Under the pieces are notes generated by a model, which worked only from the letters and a program-made list of their open reading frames with translations, was not told the DNA's origin and searched no databases. Below, in pieces: positions 7,200 through 62,000 of a stretch of DNA of 64,000 nucleotides (positions are counted from its first letter, which is position 1; each line of letters begins with the position of its first letter). Both the position numbers and the translations under genes were made by a program. Origin of the DNA: an uncultured Bdellovibrionales bacterium (GTDB lineage: Bacteria > Patescibacteriota > Minisyncoccia > Moranbacterales > GWC2-37-73); assembly GCA_964609855.1 (NCBI GenBank), contig CAZSTB010000001.1, forward strand, positions 27,854 through 91,853, read 5' to 3'.

Positions 7200-7367
7200 G
7201 AATTTCTTATTGAATTTGAATGGCGTTGATGTAAATTGACGCCTTTTATTTTTGCTGAATGACTGAAAATGGAGTAAGATAAAAGAAGAAAAAGGCTCCA
7301 AAAATATAAACAAAAAAAATTAGTATTCATGTCCGCATTTCACATGCCTGCATGATTCATAATCCGT

Positions 7368-12937: not shown

Positions 12938-15364
12938 GTGAAAGAAAAAAACGCATCCCGTGGAAAACTAATTCTACGGGTAAAAAAATCGTTTAAATAT
13001 CAAGCGATATTGGCACTGCTTTTTGCGGTGCTTTTTATTTTTCCAAATTTTTCTTATGCAACCGAATGCCCAAAAATTATTATAAGTGAACTGCAAATAA
13101 CGGGTGGGACAGGAAAAACAAATGAAGATTTCATAGAATTATTGAACGCTGGAGATGAAAACTGCAATCTCGAAGGACATCGCATCGTGAAAAGAACCGA
13201 AAACGGAACATCGGACAATTTGATTTATGAATGGCAACACGATGAGATTGTTTTGCCATGGAGATATTATCTGTGGGCTAATGCCGGCGGATTTGCTACC
13301 AAAATAAATGCCGATGTTTCGAGCAATGGATTGATTTCTAGCGACAATGGAATTGCTTTGCGATATAGGGACGATAACGGTGACAAGATCATTGATGCGC
13401 TTGGCTGGGGAGCGAGTAAAAATATTTATTCTCAAGAATATCTTTTTGAAAAAAATCCGGGCACAAATCAAAGTCTTGAGAGGAATGCGGATGGAACTTT
13501 CTTTTTGCAGACAAAACCTGAACCAAAAAACAGTTTATTTGAAAAAGATGAGGAAAAAAATGTGTGCAAAGCAGATATTTTATTTAATGAGATATATCCT
13601 TTCACAAATGAAGAATATGTTGAGGTGGTAAATCAAACAGACAGTCCATGTTTTTTGACTGGCTGGAAAATCAGCGACGAGAAAGGATATGACGAAGAGT
13701 TTCCTGATGATGCAGAAATTGCTGCGGGAGATTTTTTTATTTTAGATGGAAATCTTCATTTGAACAATGACACGGATAAGGTTTATCTTTTCAACTCAAG
13801 AGGAGAAAGAACTGATGAGCGCGAATACGAAGTGGATTTCAGCACGCAAGACAAATCGTATAGTTTTTTTGAGAATGATTGGCGCTGGACCAAATCACTC
13901 ACCCCAGCAGAAGAAAATGTTGAAAACTATGAAGAGGATGAAGAAGACTCGGTGCGTCTGGATGAACGCTCTGAACATGCCGGAACTGTTTTTATCAATG
14001 AATTTTTACCTGATCCTGAAAAGGGAGATGACGAGTTTATTGAAATCTACAACTCAGGCGATGCAGAAAGGGATTTGTCGGGATGGAAAATTCATGATGC
14101 GACAAAATCGGGAGAATATGAATTTGAAAGCCATGTGGTCATAGGAGCTAAAAAATTTCTGACTATTTTTGGGGAAGTTTTTAAATTCGCTCTCAACTCC
14201 AGTAAGGAAACTTTGACACTGCGCGATGAAGAGGGAAAAATCGTTTCCGAAATTTATTATGACAAAAGCAAAAAAGGCGCTTCCTACAATTTCAATGGTA
14301 GCATTTGGCGTTGGAGCAAATTTTTGACGCCCGGAAAGGAAAACATTTTCAACAGCGAGCCCTATGGAAAAATAAAAATTCCGGATGAGATTTATGAAAA
14401 GGTGTATGCGGAGTTTTCCGTTGGCACGGGCGACACTGATGGCGACATTGTGAAAGTTACTTGGGATTTTGGAGATAAGCATAAAAGTTATCTTGCAAAA
14501 ACACGTCATAAATATGTGAAAAAAGGAACATATGAAGGATACGTGAAACTATCCGACGGAAGTGAAGATGTCGTGCATAATTTCACCGTCAAAGTTGAAG
14601 AATTTCCACATCCTAAAGTTAAGATCACAATTGTTAATGCTAACCCAAAAGGAAGCGATACGAAATTTGAAACCATCACGATTCAAAACAAATCAAAGAA
14701 AAAAATAAACTTGAATGGTTGGAGCATCGCAACAGGTTGGAAAAATTTGGTGAATCATCCAATCAGGGAAGATGTTGAGATTAAGAAAAACAAATCCAAA
14801 GAGCTTAGCAGGGAAGTTTCAAGTTTCACTTTGAACAATAAAAAAGACAAAATAGAACTGCGCTATCCTGACGGTGAAGTCGCATATAAATTGAAATATA
14901 AAAAAGAGGAAGGCATTGAGGAGGGAGAAGTTTACAGGAAAGTTGATGGGGGATGGGAGTGGAAAAATAATAGGCAAAATTCAACAGACAAAATTCTCAA
15001 GAAGAATATGGAAGAATTGATTATTGATAATCAAGACGCAATAAGCAACATTCAAAAGACTGGAATCAGCAAGCAGCCAGATTTTAAGCAAGAAAAAGAG
15101 TTAGTGGACAGCAGCAATCAATCATCAGATAAGGAAGAAAAAGGAAATAAGCTTATAACCTTGAGCAATGAGAAAATTACAATTGAAATTCTCAAATTCG
15201 ACGCTGCTATCATTGAGAACACGAGCGTTAGGAATGTGGAGGGAAAATATCTACTTACCGGGGAAATTTCAAGTCGCGAACATTATGGAATTGTTTTTCT
15301 AAAAAAAGTTTCATCGAATGCAAATTTGAAATTGAACTTCATCCTGAATTATTTCTTGAATTAA
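12938..15364 (+). CDS. secreted multi-domain surface protein: four lamin-tail-domain (LTD) repeats plus a PKD-like domain (808 aa)
   Basis: Signal peptide. Repeated LTD signatures (IISELQITGG..EDFIELLNAGDENCNLEGHRI; LFNEIYPF..EYVEVVNQ..LTGWKISD; VFINEFLPDP..EFIEIYNSGDAERDLSGWKIHD; ITIVNANP..ETITIQNKS..LNGWSIA). WDFGDKHKSY PKD-like motif. GTG start with AGGGGG SD. Confidence 0.7.
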   Translation: MKEKNASRGKLILRVKKSFKYQAILALLFAVLFIFPNFSYATECPKIIISELQITGGTGKTNEDFIELLNAGDENCNLEGHRIVKRTENGTSDNLIYEWQHDEIVLPWRYYLWANAGGFATKINADVSSNGLISSDNGIALRYRDDNGDKIIDALGWGASKNIYSQEYLFEKNPGTNQSLERNADGTFFLQTKPEPKNSLFEKDEEKNVCKADILFNEIYPFTNEEYVEVVNQTDSPCFLTGWKISDEKGYDEEFPDDAEIAAGDFFILDGNLHLNNDTDKVYLFNSRGERTDEREYEVDFSTQDKSYSFFENDWRWTKSLTPAEENVENYEEDEEDSVRLDERSEHAGTVFINEFLPDPEKGDDEFIEIYNSGDAERDLSGWKIHDATKSGEYEFESHVVIGAKKFLTIFGEVFKFALNSSKETLTLRDEEGKIVSEIYYDKSKKGASYNFNGSIWRWSKFLTPGKENIFNSEPYGKIKIPDEIYEKVYAEFSVGTGDTDGDIVKVTWDFGDKHKSYLAKTRHKYVKKGTYEGYVKLSDGSEDVVHNFTVKVEEFPHPKVKITIVNANPKGSDTKFETITIQNKSKKKINLNGWSIATGWKNLVNHPIREDVEIKKNKSKELSREVSSFTLNNKKDKIELRYPDGEVAYKLKYKKEEGIEEGEVYRKVDGGWEWKNNRQNSTDKILKKNMEELIIDNQDAISNIQKTGISKQPDFKQEKELVDSSNQSSDKEEKGNKLITLSNEKITIEILKFDAAIIENTSVRNVEGKYLLTGEISSREHYGIVFLKKVSSNANLKLNFILNYFLN

Positions 15365-43219: not shown

Positions 43220-43291
43220 TCCGGCGTAGCGCAGCGGTAGCGCAGTTGACTGTTAATCAATTGGTCGTAGGTTCGAATCCTACCGCCGGAG
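43220..43291 (+). tRNA. tRNA-Asn (anticodon GTT)
   Basis: Acceptor TCCGGCG/CGCCGGA. Anticodon loop CTGTTAA. T-arm GTAGG-TTCGAAT-CCTAC. Discriminator G. Confidence 0.85.
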
Positions 43292-44848
43292 CACAATAGG
43301 ATGAAGAGATGCGAAAGCGTCTCTTTTTCCTTTTATGGAGCCACTTTCAGCGAGTTCGAAAGTACTATTTATCCTAGGCATCCATTCTGACATGAATTCA
43401 AACCCTAAGGTGTAGTTTGGCCTGATTTTATCGGCATTTAATGTAAGGTTCGAAAAAATATGACTTAAGAGTAGTCTTTTTTCTTCAGTGCTTGCTTCTG
43501 GGCATTTGTAGATTTCAGATGCCTTTAGTGCGAGTTCATGAATAGCAAGTCCAGCTTCATAATAGGCAGCACGAGACTCTCCTAATTTTTTGAGAGCTAT
43601 CACTGCATCTTCTTTTTCTTTTGCAGATTCATCCATCATCTTTTGACAGAGTTCCATAGACATCTTTCCATCAAGCTTGTCCCTGTAGGCATTTTCATAG
43701 CGTTTGTCAGCGGTTTGAATGGTTCTTGTAAATTCATTTCTTCTTAGTGTATTGTGTTCTATCTCGTCGTCGTGACTTTCTCTCAATGCCTTCTCGAGAA
43801 TCTTGAGCACACGCTCATTCTTTGGGGCTACATTGTCAAATAGAGGAAAGAGTTGATCTTCTACCTTCTCTTGCCTGAGATAGGTCCTCTGGCTACATTT
43901 TTTGTAATGATTGCAATGGCCATACCAGTGCCCTTTTTGGGTTTCCCAAGTAATTAACCCACCACATTCGTCGCACTGAATTTTTGCCTTGAATACGGGC
44001 AGATGCTTTTTAAAGCTAGGGTTGGCTCTTTTGCGACTCATTATTCCTTGAACTGCGTCAAATAAGTCTTTGGATATGAGCGGTTCATGCTTACCTGGAC
44101 TCTGCACTCCATTCCAAGTAATGATGCCATAATAATAAGGATCGCTGAGTAGTTGATGTATTCTACTTATGACAATTTTTCCACCAGCAACACTACGAAG
44201 TCCCTCTTTAGTTATTGTCTCAGTGATTGCCTTAAGGGAATAATTCCCTGTAGCGTAAAGCTCAAATGTTCGCGCCATAAGTGGACCCATAACTTCATCA
44301 ATAACATGACTCTTGCGACCCTTTTCTCCAATAGTTTTATAACCAGCCTTGGCTCTTTGAGGAAATTCACCTTGAGCTATTTTTTCTTTTTGACCTTTCT
44401 TTACCTCTTCAGAAAGATTATCGATATAAAATCTCGCAATTGCAACTTTCATATTCCAAACAAGACTTTCATGAGCCTTTGTGTTTTTGTTTAATATAAA
44501 TGATTCTTTTACAAAATGTATTTCGCGTTCAGTGTTCTCAGTAATCCAATCACTTATTATGCCGGCATCTTTTGGGCTACGAGTAAGCCTATCTATTTTT
44601 TCACAAAGTATCGTTAATACATTGTTTTTTGAAGCATAATCAAGCATTTCATTGAAAGTTTTTCGTATTTGTTTTCCACTTGCTGATTCAGATATTTTGA
44701 AAATCTTCTTAATAGCAATCTCGTTTTTTTGTCCGTAGGCTTCCAATAGTGTCACTTGAGCATCTAACGAATACCCAGCATCTTCTTGTTCCTTGGATGA
44801 AACGCGGGCATAGATCACCGCTTTGTTGTTTTTGTTGGCATTTTCCAT
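43280..44848 (-). CDS. large serine recombinase (resolvase/invertase N-terminal catalytic domain + recombinase domain + zinc ribbon)
   Basis: AVIYARVSSKEQ catalytic-serine motif near the N-terminus. C-terminal Cys cluster (CDECGG...CNHYKKC). Stop overlaps the 3' end of tRNA-Asn. Confidence 0.85.
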   Translation of the reverse strand: MENANKNNKAVIYARVSSKEQEDAGYSLDAQVTLLEAYGQKNEIAIKKIFKISESASGKQIRKTFNEMLDYASKNNVLTILCEKIDRLTRSPKDAGIISDWITENTEREIHFVKESFILNKNTKAHESLVWNMKVAIARFYIDNLSEEVKKGQKEKIAQGEFPQRAKAGYKTIGEKGRKSHVIDEVMGPLMARTFELYATGNYSLKAITETITKEGLRSVAGGKIVISRIHQLLSDPYYYGIITWNGVQSPGKHEPLISKDLFDAVQGIMSRKRANPSFKKHLPVFKAKIQCDECGGLITWETQKGHWYGHCNHYKKCSQRTYLRQEKVEDQLFPLFDNVAPKNERVLKILEKALRESHDDEIEHNTLRRNEFTRTIQTADKRYENAYRDKLDGKMSMELCQKMMDESAKEKEDAVIALKKLGESRAAYYEAGLAIHELALKASEIYKCPEASTEEKRLLLSHIFSNLTLNADKIRPNYTLGFEFMSEWMPRINSTFELAESGSIKGKRDAFASLHPIVLRR

Positions 44849-47072: not shown

Positions 47073-47144
47073 TTATTTATAATCTATGATAATCTGTAGT
47101 TACAATTAAATGCCTAAACTTCACGGATTCCCGCGGAGCATGGC

Positions 47145-47284
47145 AAAAAATACCGACTAAAGTATATCAAGCTCTCCATCCAGAGCACTTTAGTCGGTCG
47201 TGCGTCGAAAGGCGTGCGGGTGTCCGCAAGGACATCGCTGGTGGGGAGCTTTATGTTTTCCACCAAAAAAAATCCGACTAAAGA
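47145..47284. other. GC-rich structured element flanked by 18-bp direct repeats (aaaaaataccgactaaag / aaaaaaaatccgactaaag); candidate ncRNA or MITE
   Basis: Inverted copy actttagtcgg at 47187-47197 forms an 11-bp stem with 47151-47161. GNRA hairpin tgtcc-GCAA-ggaca at 47221-47234. A spurious 77-aa ORF overlaps it. Confidence 0.35.
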
Positions 47285-48476: not shown

Positions 48477-48506
48477 TTGACATTATACGCATTCAATGCG
48501 TATAAT
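48477..48506 (+). promoter_or_regulatory. consensus sigma70 promoter (TTGACA-18-TATAAT) with embedded perfect 11-1-11 palindrome ttatacgcatt-c-aatgcgtataa (48483-48505); candidate auto-operator; drives leaderless transcript starting at ATG 48513
   Basis: -35 at 48477-48482, -10 at 48501-48506. ATG 7 nt downstream of the -10. The palindrome spans the spacer and the -10 box. Confidence 0.5.
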
Positions 48507-48512
48507 GTAGAA

Positions 48513-51500
48513 ATGAAATACAACATCGGAAAACTTATAAAAACAGAAAGAAAAAAGCATGGATGGGACCAGGCTGAATTGGTTCGTCGCCTGGGTGGGT
48601 CGATACGTCAGCAGGCTATCAGCGGTTGGGAGCGTGGTGCTTCTCGACCTACTCGCGAAACCATTCATCTTTTAAGTAGAGAATTTGAAATTGAAGAAAA
48701 AATCCTTTTAGAGAAAGCTGGGTACATAAGTGGAGTGGAAAGGATTCCCAGAAAACCAGTTAGACCACTGCTTACTACACTTCCAATTGCTGATCTTACT
48801 CCTTATCAATTCGAACAATTTTCAGCGGATTTAGCTTCTTATTTGAACCCGGAAAAAGGTGTTTCAATTGCTCGCTATGGGTCCACTGGCCATAAGCAGG
48901 AAGGTGCTGATATTATAGTTACAAAAAGCGGTCGCAAGAAAGCTATTTATCAATGCAAGAGAGTTAACCAATTTGGACCAGCCGCAATAAAAAAAGCAGT
49001 TGATGATACAAATCTCGTTGCAGAAAATTATTATTTGCTTCTTACGCGGGTAGCCACTCCTCAAGCTCGCGAGGAAATCCAAAAATATGAAAAATGGATA
49101 CTTTGGGATATTGAAGATATTTCACAACGAGTTCGTGAATTGCCAGTAGATAAAGCTCTTCGCTTAGTTGAAACATATTTCCCAGGTGGTTGGAGGGAAC
49201 AATTTCTTGGTATTGATGATTCCGGACCGTGGACTTCTGTTGAGGATTTTTATCGTCGTTTTAATGGTGACCAAATCTTTTCACATACATGGGGGCTGGT
49301 TGGTCAAGAAAAAATTATTGATGAAATCAAACTTTTTTATGCGGATGCTCAGCAAAAATTAGGTGTTATATCAGGGAGAGGAGGCAGCGGAAAGACTCGT
49401 CTTTTGCGCGAGTTAGCGAAAATAGCTCAAGAGGATTTTGAATACAATGTTCGTTTTTTAGGTAATGGTCAAAAACCAACTTTAAAAAATTATGAGTTAT
49501 TGCGGGATATTTCTAAACTTTTAATTATAGTAGATGATGCTCATGAGCGTTCAGATATTGCTCAAATCATTGATGGTATCCATGGAGCACAACCTGAAGC
49601 AAAAATTATTTTAGCACTACGTCCATATGGCTTTTCTCAACTATCTTCCGATTTGCGCCGTATAGGTGTGCATCCCTCTGAATTTCCAAGCTGGGAAATT
49701 CAGGAAATAAAATTTCAAGATGCAGAAAAATTAACAAAAGAAGTGCTAGGTGACAAGGCTGACTCTAGAATAGTTTCACGTATAGCTCATATGACAAAAG
49801 ATTGCCCATTGTTGACGGTTGTTGGTGCTGGCTTATTTAAGCGCGGTGAATTAGATGTTCTACAGTTGGAATCTGACGATCAAATAAAAGAAGAAATCTT
49901 ATCCAGATTTAGAGATACATTTATTGAAAGTTCAAGCCAAGGAGATTCAACCATATTAAATACCGTGCTAAATACCATTTCCGCGCTGCAACCTTTTCCG
50001 CTTAATGATCCTGATTTTCGCAAAACATTGGAAAAACTGTCCAATAAACATTGGGATGAGTTGATACCATATATTCGAAGATTAGAAGAAAAGGGAATTT
50101 TATTAAAAAGAGGTAATGTAGTCAGAATCGTTCCGGATTTATTAGGAGATGTTATATTAGCTGAAGCGTGTTTTGATAACAGTGGAAGTACCGGTTACAT
50201 AGAAAGGCTTTTTGCTGATTTGTCTGATATTCCTTTGCAGCATCTCATTATAAATACTGCCCGAGTTGACTGGCAGGTAAATACATCCAAGAGAGGACAA
50301 TCTCTTGTTGGATTTCTTTGGCCTAAAATTATTTCTGAATTTGAATCATCGGACTGGGGTGGTCGCTTAGTAATAATGAAGCTTTTGAAAAAAGTTGCTT
50401 TTTTTCAGCCAGAACAAACGCTATCTCTTGTAAATATAGCAATGACAGAAATTTCCGAAGATTCTGATGAAAAAACACGAGATGATATTTTTTCTTTGAA
50501 TAATGAGCATGTTATGCACGCTATTCCAGAAGTATTGAAACAAGTTGCTTATAATTTCGATTTTTTGAAAGAAGCTGCTGATTTACTTTGGGAGCTCGCC
50601 AGAAAAGATGATAGAAGAACAAATTCTTATCCAGATCATCCTATTCGTATTCTTCAGGATTTGGCTTCTTATTCACCATGGAAACCAGCTTATTTCAATG
50701 AGAAATTAGCAGATATTGCAATAAACTGGCTAAACGAAGAAAAAAAATCAATCCATTCTCCATTTGATATTCTTGAAACATTGCTTGCTACTGAAAGTTC
50801 AGAAACTTTATCTGAAGGACCTACGCTTACATTTAGGCCTTTTGCAGTAAGATTAGAGGCTGTACAGAAGATTAGAGATTCTATTTTGCAGGTGGCTTTT
50901 TTGCAGGCAAACACAAAAGAAATTGGAAAAGCAGCTCGAGCAGTGGATGCTATAAGTAAGGGAATAAGTTACCCCATGGGCATGTTTAATAGGATTCCTT
51001 CTGAGGCGGAGCGTTCTCATTGGACTCCTTATTTTGTAAAAACTATTTCAGAGCTTGGAGAGCTTGCAAGGATGCCAGAATTAGATCCTACTATTGCACT
51101 TGAAATACGCAAGGCTTTGCAATGGCACAGGATGTATTCTAAAACAGAAACAAAAAATGCTGCCCTGGAAGCGCTCAAAGGTATGCCAGAAGGAATTGAG
51201 CACCAAATGGCTTTAGCGCTCCACTCTGGCTGGGGAGATTTAGTTTTTGAAAGAATCCGTGATTTCAAATTAAGAGATGAGCGAAGAGAAGCTTGGTATG
51301 AGGAGTTAGCTGAAAATCTAGGTCGCACTTATTCTGATCAAGAAATTGCAGATCTGTTGGAAAGTCGTCTAAATGCACAAAAAGAAGTATCGGATAGTCA
51401 ATCGCATCCAGGTCCTTTCATGTGGGCGCTAGTAAAAGAAAACCCTTCTATTGGGGAAATTATCTGTGAGAAAGTTATGGAGAATAATGACTCAGTTTTT

Positions 51501-52616
51501 CTAGCTGTTCTTCCTATAGTGCTTTCGCAGATGATGGAAAATGATTCAGCGAAAAATATACTTGTAATCCGTAAGCTTGTTGCAACTGAAAATCTCTCTG
51601 TAATTCGTTCGGTCGTTCATGCTTTTGGATGGAATCGTGGTGGGCGAGACGAACTAAATGAGGAAGAATTTGATATTTTATGTGTATTGGCCAAACATTC
51701 AGATCAGCATATTCGAAGTTCTTTGATAAGAGTTGTTCATTATATTTCTTCTAAGCATCTTGATAAAGCAATAAAACTTGTTTCTCTTATTGAATTTGGA
51801 GATTCTTTACAGGTGGCAAGTGAAGTATTTTCCATTTTCGGAAAGCATGGCGTTATGAAGCTAGAGGACTTGGGTTCGGATGAAATTGAAAAAATATGGC
51901 AGCAATTAAAAATAGTTTCCTCCATTGATGATCATTCCATTATGGAGTTCCTATTCGAGGCATCAGAAAAAAATCCAGATAAAGTGTTAGAATTGCTCAA
52001 GGGACGGATTGAATATGGAGAAATGCATCCAGAAATTAAAGATTTTAATGAACTGCCGTTTCATTGGGATGGCAATTTTCGATTTCGTGAACATCCAAGC
52101 TTTAAACAGTTACTTAGAGAAATTCGTGATTGGATGGCCGAGAAGCCAGATTCTTGGGGGAGGATGATGGAAGGTGCAAAACTATTTCAAAATGTATCTG
52201 GAGAATTTGATGACATTGTTATTGGTGTACTTGAAGAAGTTTTATATTCTGGAACAGATGGTCAACTAGAAGCTGTCAGCTACATATTGCGTGAAGCGCC
52301 AAAAAATTTGATATTGGATAATCCTGCTTTTGTAGAAAGAGTGTTGGAGATAGCTAATAATCGAGGAGAGGAGAAGTTGAGAAACATCAGTTTCAGTCTT
52401 ATATCCGCTGTAGAGAATGGCGTAAGGAGTGGAACACTAGGAGAGCCTTTTCAGGCAGATGTTGAGCAAAAAGAAAAAGCATTAAGGATTGCGGAGTCCC
52501 TTGTCTCTGGTACTTTGGTGGAAAAATTTTACCGAACACTTGCAGAATCAGCCGAGAGAAACATGAATTGGCATGCCGAAAGTAATGAGAAAATGCAGGA
52601 CTCTCGCGAATGGTAA
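48513..52616 (+). CDS. Avs/bNACHT-like antiphage STAND NTPase: N-terminal HTH(XRE) + Mrr-like PD-(D/E)xK nuclease + P-loop STAND NTPase + about 900-aa helical repeat sensor region (about 1367 aa)
   Basis: HTH: IGKLIKTERKKHGWDQAELVRRLGGSIRQQAISGWERG. Mrr_cat-like: FEQFSADL...GADIIV...YQCKRV. Walker A GRGGSGKTRLL and Walker B LLIIVDDAHE. Long all-helical C-terminus. ORF track start 48477 is a TTG inside the -35 box; ATG 48513 preferred. Confidence 0.7.
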   Translation: MKYNIGKLIKTERKKHGWDQAELVRRLGGSIRQQAISGWERGASRPTRETIHLLSREFEIEEKILLEKAGYISGVERIPRKPVRPLLTTLPIADLTPYQFEQFSADLASYLNPEKGVSIARYGSTGHKQEGADIIVTKSGRKKAIYQCKRVNQFGPAAIKKAVDDTNLVAENYYLLLTRVATPQAREEIQKYEKWILWDIEDISQRVRELPVDKALRLVETYFPGGWREQFLGIDDSGPWTSVEDFYRRFNGDQIFSHTWGLVGQEKIIDEIKLFYADAQQKLGVISGRGGSGKTRLLRELAKIAQEDFEYNVRFLGNGQKPTLKNYELLRDISKLLIIVDDAHERSDIAQIIDGIHGAQPEAKIILALRPYGFSQLSSDLRRIGVHPSEFPSWEIQEIKFQDAEKLTKEVLGDKADSRIVSRIAHMTKDCPLLTVVGAGLFKRGELDVLQLESDDQIKEEILSRFRDTFIESSSQGDSTILNTVLNTISALQPFPLNDPDFRKTLEKLSNKHWDELIPYIRRLEEKGILLKRGNVVRIVPDLLGDVILAEACFDNSGSTGYIERLFADLSDIPLQHLIINTARVDWQVNTSKRGQSLVGFLWPKIISEFESSDWGGRLVIMKLLKKVAFFQPEQTLSLVNIAMTEISEDSDEKTRDDIFSLNNEHVMHAIPEVLKQVAYNFDFLKEAADLLWELARKDDRRTNSYPDHPIRILQDLASYSPWKPAYFNEKLADIAINWLNEEKKSIHSPFDILETLLATESSETLSEGPTLTFRPFAVRLEAVQKIRDSILQVAFLQANTKEIGKAARAVDAISKGISYPMGMFNRIPSEAERSHWTPYFVKTISELGELARMPELDPTIALEIRKALQWHRMYSKTETKNAALEALKGMPEGIEHQMALALHSGWGDLVFERIRDFKLRDERREAWYEELAENLGRTYSDQEIADLLESRLNAQKEVSDSQSHPGPFMWALVKENPSIGEIICEKVMENNDSVFLAVLPIVLSQMMENDSAKNILVIRKLVATENLSVIRSVVHAFGWNRGGRDELNEEEFDILCVLAKHSDQHIRSSLIRVVHYISSKHLDKAIKLVSLIEFGDSLQVASEVFSIFGKHGVMKLEDLGSDEIEKIWQQLKIVSSIDDHSIMEFLFEASEKNPDKVLELLKGRIEYGEMHPEIKDFNELPFHWDGNFRFREHPSFKQLLREIRDWMAEKPDSWGRMMEGAKLFQNVSGEFDDIVIGVLEEVLYSGTDGQLEAVSYILREAPKNLILDNPAFVERVLEIANNRGEEKLRNISFSLISAVENGVRSGTLGEPFQADVEQKEKALRIAESLVSGTLVEKFYRTLAESAERNMNWHAESNEKMQDSREW

Positions 52617-52649
52617 TAATCAATTTTTTAGAAGTTAAAAAAATATAAA

Positions 52650-53393
52650 ATGAATGGATACAAAATTTTAGCAATAGACGAAACTGGTAAAGCAAGTTTA
52701 ACGCATAAATCAAAAAATTTTATACTTTCAGGAATAATTATCCCGGAAAGCTTTAAGCCGCAGTTGAAAAAAATGATGTGCAAATTAAAAATAAAACATT
52801 TCAATGATGAAGATCTGGTGTTTCATTGTAGAGATATGCTTCGAAAAAAAGGACCATTTGCTTGTTTAAGAGGAGATAAAAATAAAGAAATGCTTTTTTG
52901 GTCTGATTTTATAAGTATCCTAAATTCAGATAAAATTTCGTTGGCCTTCGTTATTACTGATAAGGAAAATGCAAAAAAATTAAATTGGAATGAAATAGCG
53001 ATACTAAGAAAAGCTTATAAAAAGATGCTTGAGCAATTTGTTGTGCAACATTTAAACCATAAAACAAACGGAAAAATAATAGTCGAATCTGATTCATCGC
53101 AAGACAAATTTTTGATTGAAGCCAATGCGAGGTTGCAGAGTGCGGGCATTCCTTCGGAAGGAATTAGTGGTTCAGATTATCGTGCTAAAATTACGTCATT
53201 AAGTTTAGTTAATAAACTAAATTTCGATGACGATATACAAATAGCAGATAGCTTAGCACTGATGGCGGATACGGTTTATGAAATGAAGATTGGCCGTCAT
53301 TCAAGGCGTGTTAATAAAGTTCAGCTCATGATGAAAAGACTCATAGAAAGAAAAATGAAAAATAAATTAGGTATTTTTGAGATTCTTTCATAA
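52650..53393 (+). CDS. DUF3800-family protein (defense-island associated)
   Basis: N-terminal YKILAIDETGK...NFILSGIII resembles the DUF3800 (IyIDESG...FvlaGvi) motif. ESDSSQDKFLIEAN central motif. Confidence 0.45.
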   Translation: MNGYKILAIDETGKASLTHKSKNFILSGIIIPESFKPQLKKMMCKLKIKHFNDEDLVFHCRDMLRKKGPFACLRGDKNKEMLFWSDFISILNSDKISLAFVITDKENAKKLNWNEIAILRKAYKKMLEQFVVQHLNHKTNGKIIVESDSSQDKFLIEANARLQSAGIPSEGISGSDYRAKITSLSLVNKLNFDDDIQIADSLALMADTVYEMKIGRHSRRVNKVQLMMKRLIERKMKNKLGIFEILS

Positions 53394-53397
53394 CAAA

Positions 53398-53516
53398 AGA
53401 GTCGGCCATGGCTATCCGCGCTTTACCGACTCTTATATAATATACTACGCTTTTTTTGAAAAAAAATAACAAAAAAATCGGCCATGGCTATCCGCGCATA
53501 TACCGACTTCTTATAC
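53398..53516. repeat. two roughly 38-bp GC-rich direct repeats, each an internal hairpin (agagtcgg-N20-ccgactct), spaced 77 bp
   Basis: tcggccatggctatccgcgc identical at 53402-53421 and 53479-53498. Each copy is preceded by an A-run. Shares the ataccgact core with the 47145 element. Confidence 0.6.
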
Positions 53517-53661
53517 CTGATCCTACACCTTTTAGAAAAAAATGTCAAGTTTATAAAATTTGGCCTTAAAAAGGCAATTTCTTTGCGAAGAATGAATACT
53601 TTTTTAAAAATGTTTGTAAAATCGAAGTTAACTCCTCGAAAACTTGGAATTTCAATTTTGC

Positions 53662-53690
53662 TTGACATTTTTGCCAAAAAATGCTATCAT
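53662..53690 (+). promoter_or_regulatory. consensus sigma70 promoter TTGACA-17-TATCAT upstream of the high-GC two-gene cassette
   Basis: -35 at 53662-53667, -10 at 53685-53690. About 105 nt upstream of ATG 53796, which has a GGAGGAAG SD. Confidence 0.5.
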
Positions 53691-53795
53691 TTCTTGATTA
53701 TTTCATATAATCACCCCTGTCATTTTTACAACAGAATAATTGTGTTTTTTAGTTTTTTAACCGAAGTCAAATAACCCACAGAGGAGGAAGTCGCA

Positions 53796-55052
53796 ATGAA
53801 AAAGAGTCAGGTTAATGTTTTTGATAAAGGAACGCCGGATTACGTGATAGCTCACGCAGTCAGGCAGCAGAAAAGAGGACGTCGCCCTTCAATGGCCTTT
53901 CTTGGTGAAAGGAATCCGGAGAAGGCTTTGGCTCTAGCAAAACGTTTCAAGGGCTGCAACATGGTAGTTTCCCAGGATGGTGAAAAGCAATGGAAGGTTA
54001 CGTTTAACGGAGCCATCGCTGCACAGATCCACATGGACTACCAGAACCAGGCTGACAAGGTTGTTCTCATGAACGACGACAAGCGCTGCCAGCGGTTCGT
54101 CAAAGAGCTCGTCCTCTCGCATGCAGTACAGTTCGTTATGCAGCGGGGACCGATGCCGGCAGCACTTCTAAGGGTTGTTCCTGAACGCGCGCTGGAAGAA
54201 TATACCTGCGAAAACCTGATAAGCTTTGGCAAGATTCCCAGTAGTATTTTCGCGATGAGCGACAAAACCCTGGGCTCATATCTTTCCCAGTTCGTCACCG
54301 TTGTTGAAGGAAAGTATTCCAGCCCCGAACAAATGCTCACCTGCCTGTTGATGGAAATCTACGAGAAGAAAGGTATCCTTCTGGGTATCCGGGACGCTCA
54401 GTGGTCACGCATGGACGATGGTCATATCGTCGCTACGTTCGAAATAAAAAGCGAACAAACCTTCAAGGTGTGGAATGGTAACGACGCAAGCAACATGTTT
54501 CATTTCGTCGCACCTTACCACCCGTCGAGGAACGGCAAGAAAAGCGTCTGCCTGATCAACGGCAGCACCGATTATTACATCAGGGGAAGCGAGGCCGGAA
54601 TCAGAAGAGTGCTTTCTCCTGAAGAATCGAGACCTGTGAAGGAAGGATTGTTTCTTTCTTCTACCTGGTCAAAAATCAACCATCCGTTCTACGCCGAGGG
54701 TAAGACCTTGGGCATCGAGTTTTCGGCCGTGCTCTGCATGTCGAAAACCGGCTACCAGACGCTCTACGAGTTACTGCTTGCAGCAATGAATCAGGACAAT
54801 CTGTTTGTAGCGGTCAGTGGAGGGTTTGGCTCTCCTTACGATTATGCACAGAACGTCCTGAGTCGCAAAGGCATCCGTTCGCCTGCAGGCAAACAAGGGG
54901 CTCACGAAGTTCGTGGCTCCGAAGAGGACTGCGTCTGGGAACACGAGGTTCTCAAGTCGGAAGGCGTTCTGGACAAAAGTGTCGCTCCGGACTGGTTTTA
55001 CCACGAAGGGTGGCTCAAGATTTTCGAAGGAGAAGAAAAGAAGTTCAACTAA
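53796..55052 (+). CDS. hypothetical protein (418 aa) in about 50% GC cassette; no recognisable domain
   Basis: Strong SD (GAGGAGGAAGTCGCAATG). GC content far above the window average. Antisense ORFs in the same region are judged artefacts of the high GC. Confidence 0.6.
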   Translation: MKKSQVNVFDKGTPDYVIAHAVRQQKRGRRPSMAFLGERNPEKALALAKRFKGCNMVVSQDGEKQWKVTFNGAIAAQIHMDYQNQADKVVLMNDDKRCQRFVKELVLSHAVQFVMQRGPMPAALLRVVPERALEEYTCENLISFGKIPSSIFAMSDKTLGSYLSQFVTVVEGKYSSPEQMLTCLLMEIYEKKGILLGIRDAQWSRMDDGHIVATFEIKSEQTFKVWNGNDASNMFHFVAPYHPSRNGKKSVCLINGSTDYYIRGSEAGIRRVLSPEESRPVKEGLFLSSTWSKINHPFYAEGKTLGIEFSAVLCMSKTGYQTLYELLLAAMNQDNLFVAVSGGFGSPYDYAQNVLSRKGIRSPAGKQGAHEVRGSEEDCVWEHEVLKSEGVLDKSVAPDWFYHEGWLKIFEGEEKKFN

Positions 55053-55081
55053 ATATCAACTTCAAATGGAGGTATAGGAAC

Positions 55082-56074
55082 ATGACAAGCACACAGAAGG
55101 TTTTCGTCCCCGAAGAGCACTTCCGGGAAGTTCCCGACAGTTTTTCGGGAGAATCCAACATCGTTAGTGTCGAGTCCCGAGTTTGCTCCAACGGCATCAT
55201 CCTTGATAACCTCAAGGAAGTCGAGTGCGCACTCAGGATCCACAACGGGGAAATGCTTCTTACTCCGGTGTCTAGCACGTTTACCAATATGGATCTGATC
55301 GGCAATATGTTCAAGTCGGCCGGCCCCATGGGAGCAGGACTCGCAGCTATGGCCAGTCAAACGCTGATGAAAGGCAAGGACTTTGTCGGCACGATGATGG
55401 CGGAAGCGAGATGTAACCTTGCCACTACTGGCAAATACCATCGCAGTTACGACTACGACGCCATGGGAACGAATTTCCTGAAAACCTCGGTAACTGTTGC
55501 CAGGGTGGAAAGCAAGTTCGTTCTTAATATCAGTGGCTCCCGGGTCGAAACAGATCTGAGTGTACTCCTTGGGAAAAGGGTTGCACTTTCGAGCGCGGTT
55601 ATCTACGCAAATCTGAGTGTTGTCGACGAATGGTGGTATAATCTGAACCTGAAAAAGGTTCTCGGCGACATTGGCTATCTTGATCCCGATTTCGAGCCTA
55701 CCTGGCCGCAACTTGCGCAGGTTCTGGCCTCTGAAGGTCACCAATTCCGGTTACCGATTCTGAAGGATGGTGTTCCTCTCGATCTCTTGATCAGCGTGGA
55801 TTATTCCAGCTATCGGTACCCTTCGGAAGAAGACAAGCGGGCAAGTAAGGACCTGACCAGAGCAATCGGCAGTAACGTTGCCGGCGCCACCTGGAACGCC
55901 TATCGCCACCAACGCGAGGAAGCAACCAATGAAGACAGAAAGCTTCAGATAACTGTTGCACATCACGGCAGGGGCTATGGTTCCTCGCCGGTAATCGATC
56001 CCGCGTTCACTGATGCTTTGGCAACAGTGGCAAGGGAGATCGAAGAAAAGCTCATCAAGAAAGTAGTCGCTTAA
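55082..56074 (+). CDS. hypothetical protein (331 aa), second gene of the high-GC cassette
   Basis: ATG 55082 preceded by AAATGGAGGTATAGG SD (the ORF-track start 55010 overlaps the upstream gene). Followed by a strong terminator. Confidence 0.55.
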   Translation: MTSTQKVFVPEEHFREVPDSFSGESNIVSVESRVCSNGIILDNLKEVECALRIHNGEMLLTPVSSTFTNMDLIGNMFKSAGPMGAGLAAMASQTLMKGKDFVGTMMAEARCNLATTGKYHRSYDYDAMGTNFLKTSVTVARVESKFVLNISGSRVETDLSVLLGKRVALSSAVIYANLSVVDEWWYNLNLKKVLGDIGYLDPDFEPTWPQLAQVLASEGHQFRLPILKDGVPLDLLISVDYSSYRYPSEEDKRASKDLTRAIGSNVAGATWNAYRHQREEATNEDRKLQITVAHHGRGYGSSPVIDPAFTDALATVAREIEEKLIKKVVA

Positions 56075-56107
56075 TCTTACGTCGTTGAATCAACGAAGCA
56101 CCAATAA

Positions 56108-56144
56108 AAGACCCACAAGCATAATTGCGCTTGTGGGTCTTTTC
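56108..56144 (+). terminator. rho-independent terminator (agacccacaagc-ataattgc-gcttgtgggtct + ttt)
   Basis: 12-bp GC-rich stem after the cassette. Confidence 0.7.
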
Positions 56145-56412
56145 AATTTCTAATAACAGATTGAAGTCAATTCCCTTATTTGCCTTACTGCAATATCGGG
56201 ATCTGGAAACATCCTTTCCCATTCCAAAGTTCGGAACGTGCGTACCCAAGCGAGCAAGCTCAAAAAATACACCATTTATTGGTGTATTTTTGCTTTACCT
56301 TAACTATAATGGTAGTTCTGAAATAGCACTTTTCAATTCTTTGCTCTTAGTTATCTTGTATGAAAATATGATATACTATAATCAATGATAAATCTTAAAG
56401 GATAAGTATTAT

Positions 56413-56835
56413 ATGAAAATGAAGCCTTGGCAAATCAATTCGTTACTTATATTGGGATATGTTGGCATTGTGTATCTTATGCCAAAAGAATATAAGCAAA
56501 TAGTCGGATATGTAATTACTATCCCAAGTGCAATTTGGGTATTTTTTGATGCTAAAAAACTTGATATTAAAAAATACAAAGCTAGCAATATAGGAACTGC
56601 CTCACCATTCTGGGTTGCATTTTTCGTTGCCTTTTTTTGGATACTTGCAATGCCCATATACATTAGCTGGAGACAAAAAATTATTAATGGAAAATGTCCT
56701 TTAAAAGAAGAAATAGTGGCAAGTTCTCAAAAAAAATCTAAAAAATCCTGGACTTCGTTTTTTATTACATTATTAGCAGTAATTGTTGTGGTAGTTTCAG
56801 TTATATTTTATATAAATTATTACTATTCTAAATAA
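56413..56835 (+). CDS. small membrane protein (140 aa, 4 TM), hypothetical
   Basis: Hydrophobic helices. AT-rich (native-like) composition. Confidence 0.45.
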   Translation: MKMKPWQINSLLILGYVGIVYLMPKEYKQIVGYVITIPSAIWVFFDAKKLDIKKYKASNIGTASPFWVAFFVAFFWILAMPIYISWRQKIINGKCPLKEEIVASSQKKSKKSWTSFFITLLAVIVVVVSVIFYINYYYSK

Positions 56836-58750: not shown

Positions 58751-58976
58751 TATCTAGAATGAATTTCGAACTTTGGTAATTTGATCAATAGCGTGTGAAA
58801 TATGTATTGACAAACTTTGATAAATCCGCTATGCTCTAAAGTCTTGGATGTCAGCGAGAATGTATTGTTTGTAGAGCATTATTTATGGCTATAATAGCGC
58901 AAATAATGTTCTGGAAATAATTTCAGAGCAGTAAACTTGAAAACTTAATCTTTACAAACGGAGGAGGTGAAAATCT

Positions 58977-59276
58977 ATGTACGCAGCACTGGAGTTGGTG
59001 TTTCTTTTTTTGGCTGTACTGTTCATCGTGACGCAAATGCTTATGCCGGCTTTAACTGGCGGGCAATACTTCTGGATTTTCCGAAAGGAACAGAAGGCGA
59101 TTAAGAGCAAGGAGGCTGAGCTTTCCGCACTGAGGGAACGTGAAAAGGCAATTGATCTTGACTCGGCCATCGCTGCAGGAAAAGCAAGGCTTAGGCAGAA
59201 AGCAGAAAGCGTAGGCCAGATGAAAGAAGCCATCACAGAGGAAGAAAAAGGCAAGATCCCTGAAGAAGAGAAATAA
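58977..59276 (+). CDS. small membrane-anchored coiled-coil protein (99 aa); NfeD-like partner of the downstream SPFH gene (tentative)
   Basis: GGAGGAGG SD. One N-terminal TM then a charged coiled-coil. TTGACA-17-TATGCT promoter at 58808-58836. Confidence 0.5.
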   Translation: MYAALELVFLFLAVLFIVTQMLMPALTGGQYFWIFRKEQKAIKSKEAELSALREREKAIDLDSAIAAGKARLRQKAESVGQMKEAITEEEKGKIPEEEK

Positions 59277-59312: not shown

Positions 59313-60611
59313 ATGGAAAGATTCGACGCAGATGATGCAATTGACAAGGCGACAGAACTGGGAAGGGCAGTGAAGCAGAAACTTCCGGGCAAACGAGGCA
59401 TGACTATCAGCCTCGTTTGTCTGGCACTGTTGTTCGTGCTCTTTGCGATCAAGGGCAAGATCTATTACGATCTGGCTCAAAACGAGATACTGTTCATCAA
59501 GGAAATGGGGTCCGGCAAGGTCTACATCCACAAGAATGCAGGCTGGAAGTGGGTCCGTTTCGGTGAGCCGACCATGATTAAGAAGAGCTATACGTTCTGG
59601 TTCTCCAATAAGGCTGACCAGGGCAAGAAGAATGACGAGAGTATCAAAGCGCGCTTCAATGATAACGGCCACGGGAACATCTCCGGATCCATCCGGATAA
59701 ACTCGCCACTGAACGATAAGCAGCTGTTGGATATATACTCTCAGTTTAAGACCCAGGAAGCCATCGAGCACGAGATCATCAGAACGACGCTCGAGAAGGC
59801 GGTTTATTTCGCCGGCCCACTGATGTCGTCCACTGAGAGCGCTTCCACCAAGAGGAACATGCTTCTTAGCTATATCGAAGATCAGGCCCAAAGTGGGATC
59901 TACAAAACTGTATCGGAGGAAGTGAAGGTTAAAGATACTCTGACTGGCGCCGATAAGACCATGACTCAGGTAAGACTGCTTACCGATGAAAAGAAGCCTA
60001 ATGGCATTGCCAGACACGAGCAATCGCTCCTGGCGAAGTTTGGCTTCACATCATCAAACCTGAGCATCAATGAAATTGTCTACGACGATGAAGTTGAGGC
60101 CCAGATCAAGGCCCAGCGGGAATCGATCATGTCGGTACAGACTTCCATTGCCGCGGCGAAGAAAGCCGAGCAAGACACGATCACCACTGAAGAAAAAGGA
60201 AAGGCTACAGCAGCTAAAGCCAAGTGGGCACAGGAAACGCTCAAGGCTACGGCGGTCACCAAGGCTGAGCAGGATCGCGAGGTGGCCCGTATCGACAAGG
60301 AAGCAGCTGAGTTTACCAAGCAAAAGCTGATCTTGGAAGGTCAGGGTGAAGCCGAAAAGCGACGTCTGATCATGGCAGCTGACGGAGCCCTGGACAAGAA
60401 GCTCAAGACATATGAGAACGTCATGGGTCGCGCTGTCCAGGAATTCGCCAAGCAGAAATGGGTGCCTGAAATCGTGATGGGTGGGGGATATAGTGGCAGC
60501 GCAGGCGCAGGCACTCCACTTTACGACATGATGAACATGATGTCCCTGTCGGCTATGAAAAGCATTGGCCTTGACATGGGCATCCCCATCGGCAAAAGCA
60601 CCAAGAAGTAA
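59313..60611 (+). CDS. SPFH/band-7 (flotillin/prohibitin-like) domain membrane protein
   Basis: N-terminal TM. Central SPFH-like region. C-terminal Ala/Glu/Lys-rich coiled-coil (KAEQDREVARIDKEAAEFTKQKLILEGQGEAEKRRL), flotillin-like. Confidence 0.65.
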   Translation: MERFDADDAIDKATELGRAVKQKLPGKRGMTISLVCLALLFVLFAIKGKIYYDLAQNEILFIKEMGSGKVYIHKNAGWKWVRFGEPTMIKKSYTFWFSNKADQGKKNDESIKARFNDNGHGNISGSIRINSPLNDKQLLDIYSQFKTQEAIEHEIIRTTLEKAVYFAGPLMSSTESASTKRNMLLSYIEDQAQSGIYKTVSEEVKVKDTLTGADKTMTQVRLLTDEKKPNGIARHEQSLLAKFGFTSSNLSINEIVYDDEVEAQIKAQRESIMSVQTSIAAAKKAEQDTITTEEKGKATAAKAKWAQETLKATAVTKAEQDREVARIDKEAAEFTKQKLILEGQGEAEKRRLIMAADGALDKKLKTYENVMGRAVQEFAKQKWVPEIVMGGGYSGSAGAGTPLYDMMNMMSLSAMKSIGLDMGIPIGKSTKK

Positions 60612-60689: not shown

Positions 60690-61376
60690 ATGAAATTGCG
60701 AAAACTGATTTTGTTTTGTCTGGCTCTGCTTGTTTTTGCAGGGTGCAGGTCTGATATCATCGAAAAAGTCGCAACTGGCGCGGCTCTTAGCGAAGATGAT
60801 AAAAAAGAGTACGCTGAGTATACTAAGGATGCCAAAAGCAAGGCAGACTTTGACACAGCAGTCGCTGAATACAAGAAAAAGATCGCCGAAAATAGTTATT
60901 CGCCGCCCACTGAAGAACAAAAAAAACTCGGAGTCAGGGAGTATCATGGCCAAGAATTGAAGATTTCACCGGTAGTGACAGATCAGATCGGTTTTATCGA
61001 AGGTTCCAGGGTTAAGACGCCCGACGGTGAAGGATACTTCGTCGGAATCGATAAGGACGGCGACGGATGGTTTCACCTTGATGGCAAAACATCCCTGCAT
61101 TATTACAAAGGCGGGAAAGATGAATACATCAAGAAAGGATTCATGCTCATCGCATCTCCAGCAGAGCAGCAAGAATTGGTACTTATCGCGGAAAAGAGTG
61201 CAGAAGAACAAAATGCTCTTCCTTTGGTTCCAGCGGCACCGGCAGTCAAGCCCAATCCCGCAGCTCCGAAGATCGCGAAAGCCGCTTCGGCAACTTCGGT
61301 CGTTGCAGATCTGCAGGTAGGCGAGATTGAAAAACTCCCACCGATCCCACCGATCCCGCCATTAAAAGAGAAGTGA
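60690..61376 (+). CDS. lipoprotein (228 aa) with Pro/Ala-rich C-terminal tail
   Basis: AAAGGAGG SD. Signal peptide with LVFAGC lipobox. C-terminal PPIPPIPPLKEK. Confidence 0.55.
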   Translation: MKLRKLILFCLALLVFAGCRSDIIEKVATGAALSEDDKKEYAEYTKDAKSKADFDTAVAEYKKKIAENSYSPPTEEQKKLGVREYHGQELKISPVVTDQIGFIEGSRVKTPDGEGYFVGIDKDGDGWFHLDGKTSLHYYKGGKDEYIKKGFMLIASPAEQQELVLIAEKSAEEQNALPLVPAAPAVKPNPAAPKIAKAASATSVVADLQVGEIEKLPPIPPIPPLKEK

Positions 61377-61449: not shown

Positions 61450-61821
61450 ATGGTCATGGCACATTCAACAAAGAGAGAGGCTCTGATGGAGATCGTAAAT
61501 CTCATCGTTCAGAATTCTGGCAAAAGAGCATCGCTTGCCTTCCAGGAGGAAGATACGATGACTGAGAAAGTCGAGGATGCTGCACACTTCATCAAGGTCG
61601 ACGGAAAGAGGATTGGCCGTGACATTGGGATGTACGGCTTCATGGGTGATGGCCCAGTTGGCTGGGAAAGAACACTGGCCATGTTCCTGGAAGAAATTCT
61701 CTTTCCAGTTAAAGGTCTCGGCCTCACTGAAAGCTACAATGCTGCCGCCGAGAAATTAAAGGAGCTCGGCCATGAGGTCTATTCCACCGACCTTCATGCA
61801 GAGTGGGATGGGCTGTTCTAA
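61450..61821 (+). CDS. hypothetical protein (123 aa)
   Basis: GAAAGGAGG SD. GC-richer composition. Confidence 0.45.
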   Translation: MVMAHSTKREALMEIVNLIVQNSGKRASLAFQEEDTMTEKVEDAAHFIKVDGKRIGRDIGMYGFMGDGPVGWERTLAMFLEEILFPVKGLGLTESYNAAAEKLKELGHEVYSTDLHAEWDGLF

Positions 61822-61957: not shown

Positions 61958-62000
61958 CAAACAACAAAAAGAGGCTTATTTAAGCCTCTTTTTGTTGTTT
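61958..62000. terminator. bidirectional terminator: perfect long palindrome caaacaacaaaaagaggcttatt|taagcctctttttgttgttt
   Basis: About 20-bp arms, A-run and T-run on either side. Confidence 0.6.

Follow-up and report, generated by a model that had tools for sequence, protein, structure and literature searches.

A compositionally foreign two-gene operon in a Patescibacteria genome encodes two uncharacterised protein families

Bacteria of the candidate phyla radiation (CPR; Patescibacteria) account for much of bacterial diversity, and about one in two of their genes lacks a functional assignment. Pairs of hypothetical genes are common in their genomes. The pair described here, genes A and B, lies on the plus strand of contig CAZSTB010000001.1 from an uncultured bacterium of the Moranbacterales, within a stretch of 64,000 nucleotides (nt) that was analysed as a whole and is called the window below; the main leads it offers are a conserved, apparently mobile A-B operon and a reusable N-terminal domain of protein A. 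The genes follow a STAND NTPase gene and a DUF3800 gene, with a tandem repeat in between (Table 1). An earlier reading of this DNA, the original prediction, had described A and B as open reading frames (ORFs) of 418 and 331 amino acids (aa): both are present, while B is 330 aa long. The automatic call of the B frame reaches back to a GTG at 55010, and every homologue begins where the ATG at 55082 stands.

The operon carries its own expression signals. Its sigma-70-type promoter, the best-scoring site of the region in a promoter scan, was correctly foreseen as TTGACA-17-TATCAT and has a TG extension in addition (the -10 region reads TGcTATCAT). About nine perfect TTGACA promoters occur in the window, including those of host genes, so the A-B promoter is strong yet normal for this genome, and nothing exotic. 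Counted from an inferred transcription start site, the 5′ untranslated region (5′ UTR) is AT-rich and unstructured, which suits efficient translation initiation. Strong GGAGG Shine-Dalgarno sites were seen before both genes as expected from the original prediction, and its terminator stands as well, with a stem of 15 bp instead of 12 bp. The combination of an 11/12 TG-extended promoter, an unstructured 5′ UTR, GGAGG sites, and a strong terminator would make a high-expression design. In Rfam scans, no match was found within 53.3–56.5 kb at the gathering threshold, and an E-value scan of 53300–56500 gave one chance match to a microRNA inside gene A and none for the repeats, the 5′ UTR, or the terminator.

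Table 1. Features of the A-B cassette and of the repeats upstream of it, in window positions (pI, isoelectric point; pLDDT, predicted local distance difference test).
Feature	Position	Strand	Remarks
Repeat copy 1	53390-53465		holds hairpin AAGAGTCGG-N20-CCGACTCTT at 53397-53434
Repeat copy 2	53466-53542		identical 20-nt core kept; plus-strand stem decayed
Promoter-like site	53520-53548	-	TTGACA-17-TAGGAT, 10/12; points into both repeats
A-B operon promoter, sigma-70-type	53662-53690	+	TTGACA, 17-nt spacer, TG-extended TATCAT; 11/12
5′ UTR, inferred, about 100 nt, AT-rich, unstructured	53697-53795	+	folding no better than shuffles, z = +1.7
Ribosome-binding site of A, GGAGG	53783-53787	+	8 nt before ATG
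Gene A	53796-55052	+	418 aa
N-terminal domain of A, residues 1-55, pI 10.7	53796-53960	+	pLDDT 83-91; modular
Core of A, residues about 56-418	53961-55052	+	large uncharacterised family
Ribosome-binding site of B, GGAGG	55068-55072	+	9 nt before ATG
Gene B	55082-56074	+	330 aa, pI 5.7; ATG start backed by homologue alignment
Intrinsic terminator of A-B operon	56106-56143	+	15-bp stem, 8-nt loop, U-rich 3′ side; -24.8 kcal/mol, z = -6.9

The two genes, treated as a pair by the original prediction, recur together on at least nine other contigs or MAGs (metagenome-assembled genomes). On eight other contigs (those of P0002 and of P0004/P0013, and L004, L007, L018, L019, L020, and L021), B lies next to A in the same orientation, where L004 stands for the locus L002/L004 of Buchananbacteria, L007 for the locus L007/L008, and L020 for the same operon as L019, obtained from a second run. 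In one further MAG, of Moranbacteria, both genes are found on separate contigs, A being cut at a contig end. In the six operons for which DNA is available, the A-B spacing lies between -23 and +29 nt, and wherever there is DNA the operon comes with a TTGACA/TGnTATnAT promoter of its own, a 5′ UTR of about 70–110 nt, and a terminator after B. Pairwise identities of A correlate with those of B (r = 0.82, eight operons), which is consistent with inheritance and evolution of the two genes as a unit, and both proteins are similarly conserved (61–62% identity to the Moranbacteria MAG). A third conserved neighbour gene did not emerge from an all-against-all comparison of the neighbours. The pair is kept under strong purifying selection across CPR classes; being compact, strongly expressed, and conserved across them, it therefore probably confers a portable selectable trait.

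Homologues with a taxon label come from CPR MAGs (Moranbacteria, Buchananbacteria, Saccharibacteria, and “Patescibacteria group”), except for one MAG labelled Gammaproteobacteria; four contigs or MAGs with both A and B carry a label, and all four are CPR. Both families occur mainly in CPR bacteria. They resemble other hypothetical families of CPR bacteria in that their labelled homologues are mostly from CPR MAGs, unannotated, soluble, and driven by strong promoters of their own. They differ in that A and B are joined into a conserved mobile two-gene operon, that A bears an extra modular N-terminal domain, and that the window copy is compositionally foreign.

The A core and B mostly occur singly. 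Solitary A-core genes are found at L003, L005, L006, L013/L014, L015, and L017; at L006, the gene follows a tRNA gene. In a Saccharibacteria MAG, a solitary A has ftsK on one side and, on the other, a rodZ-like gene and then recA and ham1; the gene downstream of this A was considered as a hidden B and rejected (hhalign probability 0.1%), since it is RodZ-like instead. Solitary relatives of B occur on two contigs with archaeal-type neighbours (RIO1, HTH_45, and DUF7557), where the archaeal label derives from the neighbours only, while another lies between rpsB and the enolase gene. One divergent solitary B stands between rpsP-trmD and a cluster of type ISP restriction-modification, SIR2, and GmrSD genes, to which it is adjacent. 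Elsewhere, the neighbours include genes for a UvrD-PDDEXK helicase-nuclease, a DEAD-box helicase, TfoX, and ftsK/recA, all pointing to nucleic-acid metabolism; little weight is given to this, because such genes are frequent in small genomes. As a separate observation, the solitary B-family gene of L009 (8001–8981), on a contig of 33% GC with archaeal-type neighbours, is flanked by tRNA genes at 7315–7385 (minus strand) and 9063–9133 (plus strand), and its GC content at third codon positions (GC3) is 0.12 versus 0.26 in its neighbours.

Composition sets the cassette in the window apart from its surroundings. The GC content, which the original prediction had put near 50% in an AT-richer genome, is indeed 0.504 in A and 0.516 in B against a window mean of 0.389 and values of 0.27–0.36 in the flanks, and the GC-rich block has sharp edges (53.8 and 56.14 kb) that coincide with the start codon of A and the terminator. 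GC3 reaches 0.592 in A and 0.586 in B versus 0.352 ± 0.045 in host ORFs, represented by 32 ORFs with 150 aa or more that lie upstream of tRNA-Asn, corresponding to z = +5.4 and +5.2. Compared with the host, A/B more often use C rather than T at two-fold sites (0.53–0.65, host 0.33), G rather than A in purine-ending codons (about 0.5, host 0.33), and ATC (0.73, host 0.28); the normally avoided AGG and CGG together make up 0.47 of their arginine codons, against 0.16 in the host. Because the shift hits all codon classes, the avoided AGG and CGG included, donor DNA of about 50% GC fits this pattern better than translational selection.

The other loci help to judge whether the high GC could instead be the codon bias of native, very highly expressed genes in a cassette that is an old resident. 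At L018 and L021, two loci of 34% GC, the GC3 of A/B equals that of the neighbours, so the GC richness is not intrinsic to the family. At six of nine loci from different lineages (the window, L004, L005, L006, L007, and L019), A/B exceed their neighbours in GC3, a point in favour of codon bias together with the strong promoter and ribosome-binding site in every copy and with a second cassette in the window (SPFH, 58.8–62 kb) of the same design and codon usage. However, the rise of G over A and of AGG plus CGG amounts to a general GC shift, and the cassette is located within a mosaic, recombinase-associated region. Long residence with codon bias is, in our judgment, quite unlikely, and the A-B operon looks itinerant among CPR lineages differing in GC content.

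Sharp GC steps may also be produced by an assembly chimera or a contaminant join, by which the original prediction could have been overturned. L001, from an independent Logan assembly, shows no difference from the window between 47193 and a point within 6 nt of its own end at 56117, and it spans the STAND gene, the DUF3800 gene, the repeats, A, and B; L022, a contig of a second run, is identical over 54914–56125. A chimera on the left side is therefore disfavoured. Both contigs end in the terminator hairpin just after B, which speaks for a join as the GC steps do, but these steps fall exactly at a start codon and a terminator, and the AT-rich stretch with the promoter and the 5′ UTR is also conserved in the operons at other loci. 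A chimeric origin of the block is the least probable of the explanations considered here.

The upstream neighbours deviate in the opposite way. The GC3 of the STAND and DUF3800 genes is 0.26 (z about -2), below the host, while that of A/B is above it, and therefore the neighbours differ in origin. This finding bears on the proposal, made in the original prediction, that A/B could be what is left of a multi-gene system that also included the STAND NTPase and the DUF3800 protein. All four genes lie side by side in one orientation, and DUF3800 proteins and STAND NTPases are commonly reported in defence contexts, which would suit such a system. Nevertheless, their compositions are opposite (GC3 0.26 versus 0.59), the 400 nt that separate DUF3800 from A contain terminator-like hairpins as well as a separate consensus promoter, and relatives of STAND or DUF3800 are missing from the surroundings of A and B at every other locus. 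The multi-gene system is largely refuted and has to be called very improbable; the opposite composition and the lack of co-occurrence at other A+B loci indicate that A/B is independent of STAND/DUF3800. Compositional analysis can, in this way, tell apart independently acquired neighbours. The neighbours themselves, at 48477–53393, encode a 1379-aa protein with HTH_3, Mrr_cat, and nSTAND_NTPase5 domains and, 33 nt further, a 247-aa protein whose DUF3800 assignment is weak (E = 0.0011, just below the Pfam cut-off). With a GC3 of about 0.26, they are likely a separately acquired two-gene defence-type unit.

The best explanation, held with moderate confidence, is that A/B is a horizontally acquired, autonomously transcribed operon of co-inherited soluble proteins, independent of STAND/DUF3800, which would have been inserted at a site downstream of tRNA-Asn and a serine recombinase gene, within a region of mosaic composition. 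Within this explanation, the self-contained, recently acquired operon, the co-inheritance of the two proteins, and the independence from STAND/DUF3800 are firmly supported. The recently acquired, self-contained expression module of the original prediction is thus borne out by the foreign codon usage, the sharp GC edges, the mosaic region, and a promoter-A-B-terminator design that recurs elsewhere. Several points weigh on the other side. Given the GC3 excess over neighbours at six of nine loci, expression-linked codon bias could explain part of the excess. The right junction, at 56.1–56.4 kb, is outside both Logan contigs, which end inside the terminator hairpin, and is covered by the NCBI contig alone. 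Adjacency to the HTH-Mrr-STAND gene, patchy distribution, and mobility are also expected of a defence cargo gene. As for biochemical function, neither family matches any library searched, the AlphaFold2 model of A is weak (pLDDT 40–60) over the C-terminal third, its most conserved part, and the joint mechanism described further below is pure inference.

Both protein families are formally far from anything characterised, as judged by library and structure searches. No motif had been recognised in either protein by the original prediction, and the wider searches agree. Searches of Pfam, PHROGs, PADLOC, and NCBIfam with A and B gave no match up to E = 1. Among 5.8 billion proteins, a word-indexed search recovered only nine relatives for each of them, none with a functional name or a Pfam domain, and the sole taxon label among these is Candidatus Moranbacteria. 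When 70 relatives of A and 25 relatives of B were compared with Pfam and PADLOC, only four isolated single-member matches were obtained (E 0.003–0.005): the best single-member Pfam matches have E = 0.0027–0.0054, with DUF6414 in one of the 25 B members (E = 0.0029), and in PADLOC-DB v2 one of the 70 A relatives is marginally similar to BnzA (E = 0.0038) and none of the 25 B relatives matches. Sequence profiles of the PDB gave best E-values of 0.25–1.1 for the A core, the N-terminal domain, and B (endonuclease III, ribosomal eS7, and eS19), which are treated as chance. Structure comparison by Foldseek, of the A and B models with the PDB and of B with BFVD, found nothing at E ≤ 1e-3, with template modelling (TM) scores of at most 0.24; hence, the remote homology that the original prediction had hoped for came out neither in profile nor in Foldseek searches at a significant level. 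Scans of IMG/VR with the A and B alignments gave no confirmed relatives, and tblastn of both proteins against 50,697 GenBank phage and 72,556 PLSDB plasmid records gave no match. A toxin, nuclease, or NTPase domain was not detected in A/B by Pfam and NCBIfam scans, relatives included. Both proteins are soluble, with no secretion signal and no transmembrane segment.

Protein A consists of two parts with different distributions. The short basic N-terminal domain is characterised by the motif MKKxQ...YVxAHAxWQxSRGRxPSxxYxxERNPxKALxLA, and the core by SHAxQ, YHP, INGDTDAYI, HPFYAEG, VSGGF, and RGSExxCVWEY...PxWFxxEGWL, with D81, H109, R117, Y241-H242, N255, T258, H296, R373, S375, E376, E389, and E404 as near-invariant polar residues. 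A hidden Markov model search with the A alignment reached 263 clusters (50% identity) at E ≤ 1e-3, 105 of them at E ≤ 1e-30. Most of the 263 clusters are about 360 aa long and cover residues about 57–415 only, without the N-terminal domain, and about 125 appear to match the N-terminal domain alone. Indeed, this domain heads many otherwise unrelated proteins of 60–360 aa, for example P0146 and P0156–P0169, and no Pfam match was found for the C-terminal regions fused to it. P0009 has two copies of the domain, one of which is internal; the domain is thus a folding module and not a signal peptide. The AlphaFold2 model of A, made from a shallow alignment, has a mean pLDDT of 71 and a predicted TM score (pTM) of 0.65. 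A reading of the A motifs as a PD-(D/E)xK or PP-loop protein was rejected, since the residues are not conserved at the right places.

The B family has the motifs GIILD, DFVGT, YDYDAMGxNFLKT, and VVDxWWYN, and a profile search widened it to 41 proteins, all unannotated. AlphaFold2, again from a shallow alignment, predicts long helices, antiparallel sheets, and a long C-terminal helix (mean pLDDT 80, pTM 0.75). Several START/PYL/Bet v 1 entries and a dCache domain are among the top Foldseek matches of B, but none of the matches reaches E ≤ 1e-3, the TM-scores are 0.1–0.2, and the probabilities do not exceed 0.21. A ligand-binding alpha/beta fold is, therefore, a hint from the predicted model, to be taken as a lead and not as a fold assignment. 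A reading of B as an HK97 capsid or encapsulin was dropped because there is no match to the capsid fold. A and B are not related to each other as paralogues (hhalign probability 0.3%).

The original prediction had seen in A/B a candidate defence or toxin module, that is, a new two-component anti-phage defence or toxin-immunity unit carried as defence-island cargo. The cassette does lie directly after the HTH-Mrr-STAND and DUF3800 genes in a tRNA/recombinase-associated variable region; however, among the A+B loci, a small sample, only the window has a defence-type neighbour, and the remaining ones are not defence islands. Foreign composition, patchy distribution, varied contexts, and the self-contained two-gene form count in favour of the defence module, as does the divergent solitary B that adjoins the restriction-modification/SIR2/GmrSD cluster. 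On the other hand, the A core and B are usually solitary, some of them next to housekeeping genes, and A and B are equally and strongly conserved. No credible PADLOC match was obtained for A, B, or their relatives, the marginal one to BnzA aside, and neither protein occurs in IMG/VR, phages, or plasmids as far as the scans described above extend. The lack of a toxin, nuclease, or NTPase domain, of a secretion signal, and of a transmembrane segment points in the same direction, and a design for strong constitutive expression is atypical of a toxin. On balance, a defence or toxin-immunity module is unlikely. For defence-island mining, this means that the adjacency to a STAND gene is here without independent backing for a defence role.

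The cassette can also be compared with known systems. Like Avs-like, STAND-linked defence cargo, A/B lies beside an HTH-Mrr-STAND gene in a tRNA/recombinase-associated region and bears signs of horizontal acquisition; unlike it, A/B has no credible PADLOC match and no STAND co-occurrence elsewhere, its composition is unlike that of the STAND gene, and its other copies lie outside defence contexts. The conserved N-terminal module of A, joined to unrelated C-terminal regions in many proteins, recalls polymorphic toxins and speaks to that extent for the defence module, and B, as in such toxin/immunity pairs, is tightly linked downstream and co-evolves with A. Polymorphic toxin/immunity pairs differ, though, in several respects: the A core is a large conserved family, mostly without the N-terminal domain and without B; the N-terminal domain can be internal or duplicated, as in P0009; no secretion-associated or toxin domain was detected in A/B; and B (330 aa) is comparable to A in size and conservation. 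A type II toxin-antitoxin module was rejected, because A and B have 418 and 330 aa versus typically less than 150 aa, and no toxin-antitoxin, HTH, or RHH family was found in them with Pfam and NCBIfam.

A joint mechanism for the two proteins may be sketched. A and B would be abundant cytoplasmic partners in one complex, with constitutive expression at a high level. The core of A would be the catalytic or main functional subunit, a role proposed because numerous His, Asp, Glu, Arg, and Ser residues in it are nearly invariant. The basic 55-aa N-terminal domain would serve as a portable adaptor that tethers A and many other CPR proteins to a common acidic target, most plausibly nucleic acid, and B would be an accessory, possibly ligand-binding, partner. 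This arrangement as a whole is doubtful. A broader proposal may be offered tentatively, as a possibility: A+B would be a hitherto unrecognised mobile CPR module, a machine of two proteins unrelated to any characterised ones, which passes from one CPR lineage to another in the form of a ready-to-express operon, and the N-terminal domain would be a new, widespread adaptor that directs well over 100 otherwise unrelated CPR proteins to one common target, for which nucleic acid or the episymbiont-host interface machinery would be candidates. If so, the N-terminal domain would be the hallmark of an entire class of “dark” proteins with linked functions. The locus gives a handle on three dark pieces, namely the A core family of 263 clusters, the B family, some members of which are in archaeal-type contexts, and a small basic domain that is reusable. 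At 2.5 kb, the cassette is small enough for synthesis.

The repeats upstream of A were described by the original prediction as paired hairpin direct repeats belonging to the expression module. They are real, and they represent a tandem duplication of a unit of about 77 nt (76–78 nt register) that begins at the stop codon of DUF3800, with a significant plus-strand hairpin in copy 1 only. On the plus strand, copy 1 folds with a 9-bp stem and a 20-nt loop (-16.4 kcal/mol, z = -4.3), while copy 2 folds no better than shuffles (-6.7 kcal/mol, z = -0.5). On the minus strand, G-U pairs restore the folding of both copies: copy 1 reaches -19.5 kcal/mol (z = -3.7) and is followed by the U tract UUUUGUUAU, and copy 2 reaches -16.7 kcal/mol (z = -3.4) and is followed by a U7-G-UUA-U8 tract. 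A 20-nt core, TCGGCCATGGCTATCCGCGC, is common to both copies; its two exact occurrences in the window compare with none in 100 shuffles, and it was found neither in the 20 other loci compared nor in IMG/VR. The repeats are tied to the 3′ boundary of DUF3800 and do not belong to the A-B expression module; the other loci lack them.

We take the repeats, tentatively, for a duplicated element at the 3′ end of DUF3800, outside the A/B cassette, that would form a boundary or resembles a terminator. Alternatively, they possibly give rise to a short minus-strand RNA of about 45–125 nt, or are relic tandem terminators. Each repeat resembles a rho-independent terminator on the minus strand, in which a stable hairpin is followed by a U tract. 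The differences are that the loops are very large (about 20 nt if the stem of copy 1 is taken as just its outer 9 bp), that no minus-strand gene lies upstream of the repeats, only the promoter-like site 53548–53520, and that on the plus strand the U tract is missing and copy 2 is unfolded. This minus-strand site and the A/B promoter share, in their -35 regions, an inverted repeat of 20 nt (53530–53549 with 53661–53680). A reading of the hairpins as attC sites of an integron cassette was rejected: A/B is driven by a promoter of its own, the one recombinase detected is of the serine type and not IntI, and the repeats are tandem copies 76 nt apart, not one per cassette. A 96-aa ORF at 53484–53774 in the public Logan annotation begins in repeat copy 2, at the ATG of a CCATGG core, and crosses the A/B promoter and 5′ UTR; AT-rich and of low complexity, it is probably spurious.

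On a larger scale, the tRNA-Asn gene at 43220–43292 overlaps by 13 nt a gene for a large serine recombinase on the minus strand (43280–44848; Resolvase, Recombinase, and Zn_ribbon_recom domains), and the two seem, by their position, to mark the start of a variable region. The roughly 19 kb after the recombinase are a compositional mosaic of AT-rich genes (STAND and DUF3800 among them), A/B, AT-rich genes for small membrane proteins, and the second GC3-rich cassette. No att-type direct repeats flanking the cassette or the island were found. The second cassette, at 58.8–62.0 kb, has a TTGACA-17-TATGCT promoter at 58807–58835, GGAGGAGG ribosome-binding sites, and a terminator with a perfect 20-bp stem at 61959–62000. 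It encodes a 99-aa membrane protein (58977–59276), an SPFH/Band-7 protein (59313–60611; GC3 0.65, z = +6.6), a lipoprotein-like ORF (60690–61376), and a 123-aa ORF (61450–61821). Its codon usage is close to that of A+B (ATC 0.72, GGC 0.5, and CTG 0.39), which suggests the same donor type or the same selective regime as for A/B.

The AT-rich part of the island also contains a strong match to the LOOT RNA family (RF03000) on the plus strand at 47111–47236, with 84.7 bits against a gathering threshold of 46.4 and over the full length of the model. A 279-aa ORF and a DUF805 gene lie on either side of it, and a 77-aa minus-strand ORF that overlaps it is probably spurious. Elsewhere, the window encodes PolA, PBP1, a Mur ligase, pyruvate kinase, DnaG, and RpoD; taken with the tandem PilB and lamin-tail proteins described next and with the taxon labels of the homologues, this gene content suggests that the host is a member of the CPR/Patescibacteria. 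Furthermore, a 1005-aa protein with two tandem T2SSE (PilB-type) ATPase domains is encoded at 7368–10385, and nearby, at 12938–15364, a protein of 808 aa that combines four lamin-tail domains with one PKD domain. Such tandem PilB and lamin-tail proteins are typical surface and pilus equipment of CPR bacteria.

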